A stretch of DNA of 597 nucleotides from the NCBI RefSeq assembly GCF_003334255.1, contig NZ_QOWU01000216.1. One strand, 5' to 3'. Origin of the DNA: Escherichia coli. Its GTDB lineage: Bacteria; Pseudomonadota; Gammaproteobacteria; Enterobacterales; Enterobacteriaceae. The notes beneath the pieces are model-generated. The model worked only from the letters and a program-made list of their open reading frames with translations. It ran no database searches and had not been told where the DNA came from. Both the position numbers and the translations under genes were made by a program. Below are positions 22 to 597 of the stretch, piece after piece (positions within the stretch are counted from its first letter, which is position 1; each line of letters starts with the position of its first letter).

Positions 22-48
22 GAAAAAACAAAACCCGCCGAAGCGGGT
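22..48 (-). terminator. Rho-independent terminator of the hok mRNA
   Basis: Minus-strand reading is ACCCGC-TTCG-GCGGGT followed directly by TTTTGTTTTTT: a 6-bp GC-rich stem (33-38 pairing 43-48), a UUCG tetraloop and a U-tract. It sits 69 nt downstream of the hok stop. There is no T-run on the plus-strand side, so it looks unidirectional. Confidence 0.85.
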
Positions 49-49
49 T

Positions 50-68
50 AAGTGCGGGTGCGTTGAGG
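50..68 (-). promoter_or_regulatory. 3' fold-back (fbi-like) element of the hok mRNA, complementary to the 5' leader element at 431-448
   Basis: Plus-strand 50-68 AAGTGCGGGTGCGTTGAGG versus the reverse complement of 431-448, GACTGCGGGTGCTTGAGG: an 8-nt plus 6-nt perfect match separated by one extra G, with one further mismatch at the edge. In the mRNA this lets the extreme 5' end pair with the region just upstream of the terminator, as the tac/fbi interaction does in R1 hok mRNA (established knowledge; the assignment here is inference). Confidence 0.5.
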
Positions 69-117
69 ATGCCTGACACATCAGAGGTGGCGAGGGATTT
101 CTCCCCCGCCAGGTCTC

Positions 118-273
118 TTACTCCTCAGGTTCGTAAGCTGTGAAGACAGCGACCTCCGTCTGGCCGGTTCGGATTCGTACCTCGCAGAGGTCTTTCCTCG
201 TTACCAGTGCCGTCACTATGACGGTTAAACAGATGACGATCAGGGCGATTAACATCGCCTTTTGCTGCTTCAT
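118..273 (-). CDS. hokD: Hok/Gef family type I toxin (small membrane-depolarising peptide), HokD/RelF-like, 51 aa
   Basis: Minus-strand ORF from ATG (complement of 271-273) to TAA (complement of 118-120), 156 nt. Translation: MKQQKAMLIALIVICLTVIVTALVTRKDLCEVRIRTGQTEVAVFTAYEPEE. It has a single hydrophobic transmembrane segment and a conserved Cys-containing TRKDLCEV core, as in Hok/Gef proteins. It matches my memory of E. coli HokD (RelF) and is close to, but distinct from, HokC (Gef). Paralogue naming is from recollection and the context differs from K-12 hokD. An AGGAG Shine-Dalgarno lies 9 nt upstream. Confidence 0.93.
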   Translation of the reverse strand: MKQQKAMLIALIVICLTVIVTALVTRKDLCEVRIRTGQTEVAVFTAYEPEE

Positions 274-329
274 AGCCTGCTTCTCCTTGACCTTTCGGTC
301 CGTAAGAGGCTAATCTCTATGTGTCGCAT
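270..329 (-). CDS. mok-like leader ORF (19 codons), translationally coupled to hok through an ATGA start/stop overlap
   Basis: Minus-strand ATG (complement of 327-329) is preceded by GAGG with an 8-nt spacer. Translation: MRHIEISLLRTERSRRSRL, ending in a TGA (complement of 270-272) that overlaps the hok ATG. It starts 56 nt upstream of hok, at the position where mok starts in hok/sok loci, but in the +1 frame. The frame in phase with hok is closed by a TAG 13 codons upstream of the hok ATG. Whether the peptide is made is untested. Confidence 0.45.
   Translation of the reverse strand: MRHIEISLLRTERSRRSRL
283..287 (-). promoter_or_regulatory. Shine-Dalgarno sequence of hok (AGGAG)
   Basis: Minus-strand AAGGAGAAGCAGGCT-ATG; AGGAG with a 9-nt spacer to the hok ATG. 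Confidence 0.7.
287..316 (+). promoter_or_regulatory. Candidate sigma70 promoter for the Sok-like antisense RNA
   Basis: Plus-strand TTGACC (287-292), 18-bp spacer, TAATCT (311-316); predicted start near 322-324. The -35 overlaps the hok Shine-Dalgarno on the opposite strand. The -10 matches consensus only at T1, A2 and T6, so this rests largely on position. Confidence 0.45.
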
Positions 330-380
330 AGATATGGCCTCAGATTAATGTTAAGCGTCTTGCAGGACGCGTAATGTTAA
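322..380 (+). ncRNA. sok: Sok-like antisense RNA antitoxin (type I), boundaries approximate
   Basis: A plus-strand transcript from about 322 would be exactly antisense to the Shine-Dalgarno and AUG of the mok-like ORF (complement of 327-341). It ends in a stem-loop, GCGTC-TTGCAG-GACGC (355-370), extendable to an imperfect stem over 345-380. Size (about 55-65 nt) and position relative to the mok start fit known Sok RNAs. The 3' end is uncertain (378 to about 392) because no clean U-tract follows the stem. Confidence 0.5.
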
Positions 381-393
381 CTGGGGCTTTTCT

Positions 394-430
394 CTATCTG
401 CCTTTTGGTGTTCATGCCTGAGACAGATAG
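394..430 (-). repeat. Inverted repeat (hairpin) in the hok mRNA 5' leader
   Basis: Plus-strand CTATCTG (394-400) and CAGATAG (424-430) are perfect reverse complements, extendable to about 10 bp with one G-U pair, with a 17-nt loop. It lies immediately 3' of the leader element at 431-448 in the mRNA and may belong to the leader's regulatory fold. Confidence 0.4.
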
Positions 431-448
431 CCTCAAGCACCCGCAGTC
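431..448 (-). promoter_or_regulatory. 5' leader (tac-like) element of the hok mRNA, complementary to the 3' element at 50-68
   Basis: See the feature at 50-68. It sits directly downstream of the predicted -10, that is, at the extreme 5' end of the predicted transcript. Confidence 0.5.
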
Positions 449-476
449 ATTCTACTTAACTAAGATTTCCCCGCAA
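449..476 (-). promoter_or_regulatory. Candidate sigma70 promoter of the hok mRNA
   Basis: Minus-strand TTGCGG (complement of 471-476), 16-bp spacer, TAGAAT (complement of 449-454), with an A-rich stretch upstream. The predicted start near 441-443 gives a leader of about 113 nt to the mok-like AUG and about 169 nt to the hok AUG, similar to R1 hok mRNA. The complementary 5' element begins right at the predicted start. Confidence 0.4.
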
Positions 477-597
477 ACCGTTTTTGTCCGGCACAGTAAA
501 TATCCAACTAAACCAATGGCGTTCGCTGTATTTACCGCCAGTATTCAATGCACATGACCGCCATGAACACCCCTAAAAAAAGGGCATTTATATATCC

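Follow-up and report, generated by a model that had tools for sequence, protein, structure and literature searches.

The toxin gene hokD (relF) of Escherichia coli K-12 lies downstream of relBE. We analyzed a stretch of 597 nucleotides from E. coli (assembly GCF_003334255.1, contig NZ_QOWU01000216.1), which is referred to below, at its full length, as the window. A sequence-only reading of it had recognized a HokD-like toxin gene behind a canonical hok/sok leader and had suggested that this may be the ancestral, unrearranged form of the hokD-type locus, or else a paralogue in a different prophage or plasmid context. The identity of the toxin, the sequence elements and their conservation, the predicted folds and the genomic context could all be observed directly. 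Together they make it very probable, in our judgment, that a Qin-like lambdoid prophage carries within its nin region, at window 23-477, an entire type I toxin-antitoxin cassette, hokD/sokD, which should work by analogy with hok/sok of plasmid R1 and with hokW/sokW and whose site is unoccupied by a relBE-carrying element.

Identity of the toxin and its leader

The coding sequence of hokD occupies positions 118..273 of the minus strand (51 codons plus stop) and was assigned from the list of open reading frames (ORFs), a Pfam match and identity with HokD of K-12. The product of this ORF, read from 273 to 118, is MKQQKAMLIALIVICLTVIVTALVTRKDLCEVRIRTGQTEVAVFTAYEPEE. The HOK_GEF model (Pfam PF01848) matched residues 6-47 over all of its 42 positions with an i-Evalue of 1.3e-23, which places the protein in the Hok/Gef family of toxins of about 50 amino acids. 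It is identical to K-12 HokD at 51 of 51 positions, both proteins being held under RefSeq WP_000813254.1, and is farther from HokW of phage 933W (47/51), R1-type Hok (22/52) and PndA-type proteins (18/51). The alignment covered these four proteins, and none of HokA, HokB, HokC and HokE can exceed the 100% shared with HokD. The protein is thus the orthologue of HokD (RelF), as the sequence-only reading had proposed.

A tblastn search of the window with RelE and RelB of K-12 gave nothing beyond a seven-residue chance match (E = 1.8), in agreement with the earlier statement that no RelE is encoded upstream of hok. The K-12-type relBE-hokD ('relBEF') arrangement, with relE directly upstream of hokD, was found neither in the window nor in the source genome. 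Present instead is a structured leader homologous to that of hok mRNAs: Rfam model RF01794 matched positions 442..271 of the minus strand over its full length (1-157) with 106.7 bits (gathering score 59) and E = 2.9e-25. The canonical hok/sok leader that had been seen in the letters is therefore real.

The hokD site is split by a relBE-carrying element in other strains

When the window was aligned with the relE-hokD region of K-12, DNA identity was confined to the part from window 287, which is 14 nt upstream of the hok ATG, to about 24, in the T-run. The occupied state of the site was found in strain G5 (locus L087), in which a leader homologous to window 597-272 is followed by a 3274-bp insert (L087 1417-4690) and then by the hokD Shine-Dalgarno (SD) sequence and coding sequence. 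Both sides of the insert carry the 15-mer GGAGAAGCAGGCTAT as an exact direct repeat (L087 1402-1416 and 4691-4705). The same 15-mer, in the minus-strand reading, lies at 272..286 of the window; it is single-copy there, as expected of an empty site, and in every locus other than G5. The ends of the element, TGTTAACACCAAGC... and ...GCGTTGACA, are inverted repeats that begin with TGT; they are imperfect, with 19 matches over 26 positions, and none of 20000 random pairs drawn from the element does as well. These repeats were detected by direct alignment with the random-pair control; they hold no 7-nt exact seed, so the repeat search had missed them. The G5 insert also encodes a transposase of 437 amino acids with helix-turn-helix and rve domains, which matched NF033594 (ISNCY) with 453.7 bits and is named by RefSeq 'IS1202-like element ISEsa1 family'. 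The duplication, the inverted repeats and the transposase together identify the insert as a transposable element, and its cargo consists of flxA, ydfV, relB and relE. Its transposase ORF (L087 1491-2804) is 27 nt shorter than in the plasmid copies (L089 975-2315; 437 versus 446 amino acids) and is flagged as partial by RefSeq, though the frame is open throughout.

K-12 and G5 are 99.98% identical from inside the transposase gene onward, and in K-12 the leader is missing, together with the left inverted repeat and the greater part of the transposase gene; the 49-amino-acid 'ydfW' of K-12 is the transposase C-terminus. Since K-12 matches G5 from the interior of the transposase while the left part is gone, it is a deletion derivative of a G5-like state. 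Of 5426 complete E. coli genomes, 684 contain the leader-element junction and 760 contain at least 80% of the element. Judged by this sequence comparison, the window shows in its empty state the site that the relBE element has split in the K-12 lineage. The G5 site with its 15-bp duplication and the single copy in the window thus support the description of this locus as ancestral and unrearranged.

A different junction was seen in two further loci, both on viral contigs. In L010 (1341-2429) and L054 an IS481-like transposase gene (NF033577, 221 bits) on the opposite strand abuts hokD at ...ACTTACAC followed by AGGAGAAGCAGGCT, and the leader is absent. Each of these loci holds one copy of the 15-mer, so no duplication is demonstrable; this looks like a second kind of truncation associated with an insertion sequence (IS) at the same point.

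The same element at other hok families

A 3301-bp version of the element, 99.5-99.8% identical, is carried by plasmids of Enterobacter, Salmonella and E. coli. It was found at the pndA-type locus of IncI plasmids (L089, L091), with the duplication TGGAGGGGCTATGAT, and at the R1-hok-type locus of an IncF plasmid (L090), with the duplication GGAGAAGAAGGCCA. All hokD, pndA-type and R1-hok-type insertions examined have the same orientation and lie at the equivalent point, each with the matching hok leader as its left flank. The duplicated 14-15 bp reach from the hok SD into the beginning of the start codon and follow immediately on the GCCGNAAGGCA hairpin. Three independent insertions at homologous positions point to target specificity, and the presence of one relBE element at the ribosome-binding site and start codon of three hok families may be a new observation. 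No paper linking ISEsa1 to hok or relBE was found in a search that did not cover the two most relevant older papers.

Based on these observations we think it likely that the window represents the intact target of a hok-specific transporter IS of about 3.3 kb, of the ISEsa1/IS1202 family, that carries relBE and has inserted in one orientation, independently, in three hok families. Such an insertion would sever the toxin from Sok and mok and place it behind relBE; the 'relBEF operon' of K-12 would then be a decayed insertion. A smaller part of this reading concerns mok, for which the use of all three frames by loci with identical HokD suggests that the peptide itself has no importance.

Genomic context and distribution

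The chromosomes of E. coli strains 4/0 and Esc27 match the window with 100% identity. In 4/0 the locus is annotated within a lambdoid, Qin-like prophage adjoining tRNA-Ser/mtfA, which we take not to be the position of Qin on the K-12 map. Prophage replication and nin-region genes lie upstream, the genes for DUF968, RusA and the Q antiterminator downstream, and relBE is absent from the hokD locus of this source genome. The hokD genes of the 4/0 prophage and of K-12 Qin occupy the same relative position, upstream of the DUF968 gene and Q, and the prophages have in common dicB-ydfABC, with 98% identity, and several late genes, with 86-92%. The alternative of a paralogue in a different prophage is thus partly true as well, given the location of the 4/0 prophage beside tRNA-Ser/mtfA.

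At least 80% of the window was present in 1849 of the 5426 genomes, with a median of two and up to ten related places per genome. Enrichment of hok genes in prophages has been described (bioRxiv 10.1101/2025.08.07.668861). The cassette that is common to prophages covers roughly window 24-489. No feature was identified at window 490-597, and this stretch is present in only 16 of 39 related loci. The span 118-597 given by the sequence-only reading contains the leader and hok; the locus also needs 23-117, where the 3′ untranslated region with the fbi box and the terminator lies, and 490-597 falls beyond the cassette that prophages have in common. In E. coli 50EVA (L086, 2017-2409) an additional hypothetical gene for 130 amino acids lies between hokD and the downstream module and splits the match to the window.

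Anatomy of the cassette

On the minus strand the elements follow each other in the order promoter, G442, tac, hairpin, ucb-like box, complement of the Sok hairpin, mok SD and AUG, dcb-like box, hok SD, hokD, fbi and terminator. The full-length hokD mRNA would be about 420 nt long (23..442, minus), its 5′ end being placed by homology at the start of the Rfam model and its 3′ end at the terminator T-run. A putative promoter can be read immediately upstream: the weak -35 hexamer TTTGCG (472..477, minus; 3/6 to consensus) is 17 nt 5′ of a putative -10, TAGAAT (449..454, minus), which lies 6 nt 5′ of G442 and is also found in the related locus L047.

The tac box GGGUGCUUGAGG (431..442, minus) forms the 5′ end of the mRNA. 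Near the other end, at 56..68 (minus), lies the fbi box CCUCAACGCACCC, which is complementary to tac with one bulged C, and behind it an intrinsic terminator of hok mRNA (23..49, minus; stem-loop 49-32, T-run 31-23) was located by the terminator scan. The ucb-like box AAGCCCCAG (381..389, minus) is named by analogy with R1 (PMC9841398). Mok has an invariant TGAGGC containing its SD, GAGG (338..341, minus), 8 nt 5′ of the mok AUG read at 329-327 (minus). A dcb-like box, GCCUC (306..310, minus), is proposed as an alternative partner of the mok SD. The hok SD, AAGGAG (283..288, minus), is retained in K-12. In one hokD locus (L050) about 40 nt of the leader are missing.

RNA folding and conservation

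For the analysis of conservation, 80 viral-contig loci with identical HokD were sampled together with 933W and a Rac-like phage, which yielded 66 different mRNA regions of full length. A consensus fold was computed with RNAalifold from an alignment of 30 representatives, whose identity to the window is 82-97%. The 417-nt RNA from 442 to 26 has a minimum free energy (MFE) of -175.1 kcal/mol (z = -8.75), and none of 100 shuffled sequences was as stable. In the MFE fold of the full-length RNA the first twelve nucleotides pair with fbi, with one bulge, and the mok SD pairs with the upstream ucb-like box. The long-range pairing of the 5′ end (tac) with the 3′ end (fbi) that characterizes hok mRNAs is thus predicted here too. 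It recurs in the consensus fold as 11 pairs present in 28-30 of the 30 sequences, and tac itself is invariant in all 30.

The pairs between the ucb-like box and the mok SD (56-62/100-106) were found in both the MFE and the consensus fold and are present in 29/30 sequences. Compensatory changes support the neighbouring hairpins: an A-U pair is replaced by G-C in five sequences of the alignment in the hairpin adjacent to tac, and changes of this kind occur at alignment columns 62/100, 64/97 and 65/96 in the Sok hairpin. Indels misalign the region of the mok AUG in the 30-sequence alignment, so RNAalifold missed the hairpin there, and its variants were folded one by one. All 15 variants of the stretch from the SD to dcb fold alike, with an outer stem GAGGC/GCCUC and an inner stem with compensating changes, and their z-scores are between -2.7 and -4.1. 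As both the ucb-like and the dcb-like pairings are conserved, the mok SD has two alternative partners, as in the R1 scheme (PMC9841398).

The mok-AUG hairpin (window 315-336, alignment columns 107-131) is the most variable stretch of the cassette and is also the target of the 5′ tail of Sok. With the copy numbers per genome given above, this variability could diversify the specificity of Sok between co-resident copies.

The mok reading frame

The mok equivalent of the window, MRHIEISLLRTERSRRSRL (270..329, minus), is an upstream ORF of 19 codons whose stop codon UGA (272-270) overlaps the hok AUG (273-271) in the sequence AUGA. It has its own SD and an AUG at the homologous position, and its short frame has no long overlap with hok. 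We determined the distance from the mok AUG to the hok AUG in 78 hokD-type loci with a locatable mok AUG. It is 57 nt in 55 loci, where mok is in frame with hok and a Hok extended to 70 amino acids results (MokW in 933W), and 56 nt in 19 loci, which have the 19-codon ORF ending at AUGA seen in the window. In the remaining four it is 58 nt and gives an R1-like out-of-frame ORF of 68 amino acids; mok of R1 overlaps hok out of frame. The differences are due to length variation in two small hairpins.

The occurrence of three mok frames among loci with the same HokD may be a new observation. Since all three accompany the same toxin, it suggests that what counts is the passage of ribosomes through the leader and their delivery to the hok start, and that a Mok peptide, if made, is irrelevant. 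AUGA overlaps are a standard arrangement for translational coupling, and termination-reinitiation at the overlap would be the obvious mechanism for the mok type of the window.

Predicted antisense RNA

A SokD RNA of about 70 nt is predicted on the plus strand at 323..393, with a 5′ tail at 323-335, a hairpin at 336-388 and a U-tail. The 13-nt tail is complementary to the mok AUG region, and the hairpin is 53 nt long. The fold of 313-396 has an energy of -34.6 kcal/mol (z = -6.76), and sokW, annotated as misc_RNA in phage 933W, maps to about 324-392 of the window; by analogy, a Sok transcript would arise from about 323-393 of the plus strand. A putative sok promoter lies at 287..316 (plus) in the region that aligns with the R1-type locus, with the -35 hexamer TTGACC at 287-292, a spacer of 18 nt and the -10 hexamer TAATCT at 311-316. 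The placement of the hexamers leans on what we take to be the position of the sok promoter in R1. In K-12 this -35 is destroyed by the junction at 287. In some hokD loci (L021, L032, L071, L050) the long Sok-terminator hairpin region (columns 62-100) is replaced by a shorter, unrelated sequence.

Other features of the window

The codon for Tyr47 of hokD lies within a UACG motif (132..135, minus), the motif for A-to-I editing by TadA. Editing of the UACG motif in hokD mRNA of K-12 is reported to reach 6% and to change Tyr to Cys (PMC12214031). A match to isrK at window 28-109 (minus), covering the hairpin of the hok 3′ untranslated region and the terminator, scored 27.2 bits (E = 0.0007), below the gathering score of 50; it was rejected and is probably driven by the terminator. 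On the plus strand RefSeq annotates a hypothetical protein of 59 amino acids, WP_001112736.1, which ends at window 76, antisense to the hok 3′ untranslated region and terminator, and an ORF of 42 amino acids lies at 15-143. Both look like overprediction.

How the cassette would work

Transcription, processing, the action of Sok and the coupling of mok to hok at AUGA can be proposed by analogy with R1 and hokW/sokW. A weak promoter would give a stable mRNA of about 420 nt in which base pairing ties tac at the 5′ end to fbi at the 3′ end, and the ribosome-binding site of mok to the box upstream of it, so that the full-length RNA would be neither translated nor bound by Sok. Slow trimming from the 3′ end would take off fbi and allow the leader to refold. 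The short-lived antisense Sok (plus strand, about 323-393) would then pair with the region of the mok SD and AUG, block translation of mok and trigger decay. If Sok were lost, ribosomes would translate the upstream ORF and continue to hok, and the 51-amino-acid membrane toxin would kill the cell or stop its growth. The flxA-ydfV-relBE element of the ISEsa1 family (IS1202 family) has inserted at this site in many E. coli, relB-relE-hokD of K-12 being a decayed copy of that state.

The role of such a cassette could also be something other than prophage maintenance, namely modulation of lysis and phage release or abortive infection of other phages. Its place in the nin region, with Q and the lysis genes following downstream, is in keeping with such a role; sequence does not distinguish the roles, and the survey cited above (bioRxiv 10.1101/2025.08.07.668861) found no enrichment of hok beside defence systems. 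We regard this explanation as possible, though somewhat doubtful.

Several observations weigh against the main reading. A sigma-70 consensus scan of the window found neither a hok nor a sok promoter above threshold, and both promoters are therefore placed by homology only. The RF01794 match, though to a model named 'sok', lies on the hok-sense strand and extends as far as the hok AUG; it therefore speaks for the hok leader and gives no support for the antisense transcript itself. The tac-fbi columns are nearly invariant and offer no covariation support, so that the pairing is backed by conservation, not covariation. In the MFE fold of the 3′-truncated mRNA the expected tac/ucb refolding was absent and the SD was still paired with the upstream box. 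The mok frame of the window departs from the majority type, with possibly weaker coupling. Finally, chromosomal hokA, hokB and hokC are stated to be unable to mediate post-segregational killing in work cited in bioRxiv 10.1101/2025.08.07.668861.

A rival reading is that the cassette is structurally complete but a silent prophage relic, in which the 19-codon mok or the weak promoters prevent synthesis of Hok. Such a view would draw on the 56-nt spacing of the window against the majority 57 nt, on the negative promoter scan and on the reports of chromosomal hok loci inactive in killing assays. We consider it improbable. The 56-nt type is recurrent, and several of the loci that have it carry other substitutions as well (L024, L039, L044), which indicates that it persists and is not a one-off lesion. 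No box is damaged and neither is the HokD protein, the 1849 genomes keep at least 80% of the window, and the AUGA overlap is a standard coupling arrangement. That the window is a misread K-12-type relBE-hokD, or its toxin another paralogue such as HokC/Gef or HokW, is next to impossible: no support for it was found apart from the closeness of HokW (47/51), and it is refuted by the lack of RelE/RelB similarity, of K-12 DNA homology upstream of window 287 and of relBE at the source locus, and by the 51/51 identity and shared accession with K-12 HokD.

A complete hokD/sokD cassette at an empty site thus remains the preferred reading. That reading is not novel: the intact locus and its unrearranged status are already known in outline, because the K-12 rearrangement, the integration of relBE, the 933W annotation and the function of hokW-sokW are all in the record, and the sequence-only reading was correct. 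The locus itself, a hokD of a common kind of prophage that is annotated as a matter of routine, is useful mainly as the 'intact' reference for hokD of K-12. As by-products, the comparison explains in concrete molecular terms where the textbook relB-relE-hokD (relBEF) arrangement comes from, suggests that the translation starts of hok genes are the specific target of an insertion sequence, and reveals natural variation of the mok frame that bears on the mechanism of mok-hok coupling.

Comparison with known systems

The relBE element resembles the ISEsa1/IS1202 family (formerly ISNCY) in its transposase of 437-446 amino acids, the NF033594 match and inverted repeats that start with TGT. Within the IS1202 family, repeats starting with TGT are reported for the ISTde1 and ISAba32 subgroups, and targeting of dif sites for another subgroup. 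Duplications in the ISTde1 subgroup are given as 15-17 bp (16-17 bp in the results of the same paper), and the 14-15 bp of the relBE element are at or just below this range. ISEsa1 proper is 1609 bp long and its target duplication was undetected (PMC10132070). The relBE element differs from it in its length of 3274-3301 bp, in the flxA/ydfV/relBE cargo and in its duplications.

The regulatory scheme of hok/sok (parB) of R1 has been described (PMC9841398), and the window resembles this system in the order and spacing of the elements: tac and the hok AUG are 168 nt apart in the R1-type sequence and 169 nt apart in the window. The R1-type locus also has a 3′ box complementary to tac, a mok SD and AUG, the conserved UAGCCUCUUAC and a sok promoter in the same place. 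It differs in the toxin (22/52), in its long mok, in the 58-nt spacing of the R1-type sequence and in being plasmid-borne, and the Sok hairpin of the window is longer.

Closer is mokW/hokW/sokW of the Stx2 phages 933W and Sp5, with 90.8% DNA identity over 443 nt, 47/51 identity in the toxin, the same architecture and the same prophage setting. The 933W record (AF125520) has held mokW, hokW and sokW features since its deposition in 1999, with sokW annotated at the position equivalent to the predicted Sok of the window, and hokW-sokW is an experimentally functional toxin-antitoxin pair (PMC8621323). Unlike the window, with its 56-nt spacing and an upstream ORF that terminates at the hok AUG, 933W has a 57-nt in-frame mok that yields the 70-amino-acid 'MokW', and its terminator region is different.

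For K-12, the hok loci other than hokB are described as inactivated by insertion elements or genomic rearrangement in PMC12214031 (citing Pedersen & Gerdes 1999). According to PMC6379469 (citing Ramisetty & Santhosh 2016), integration of plasmid-acquired relBE shortened the ancestral hokD ORF from about 70 codons to 51. K-12 hokD (relF, Qin) encodes the identical protein, with 98.9% DNA identity over window 24-287, from the hok SD to the terminator. It lies 71 nt downstream of relE, is reported to be cotranscribed with relBE and, as the sequence-only reading had stated, has no mok/sok region of its own. It lacks the promoter, tac, ucb, mok, the Sok target and the sok promoter, whereas the window keeps the leader and is without relBE.

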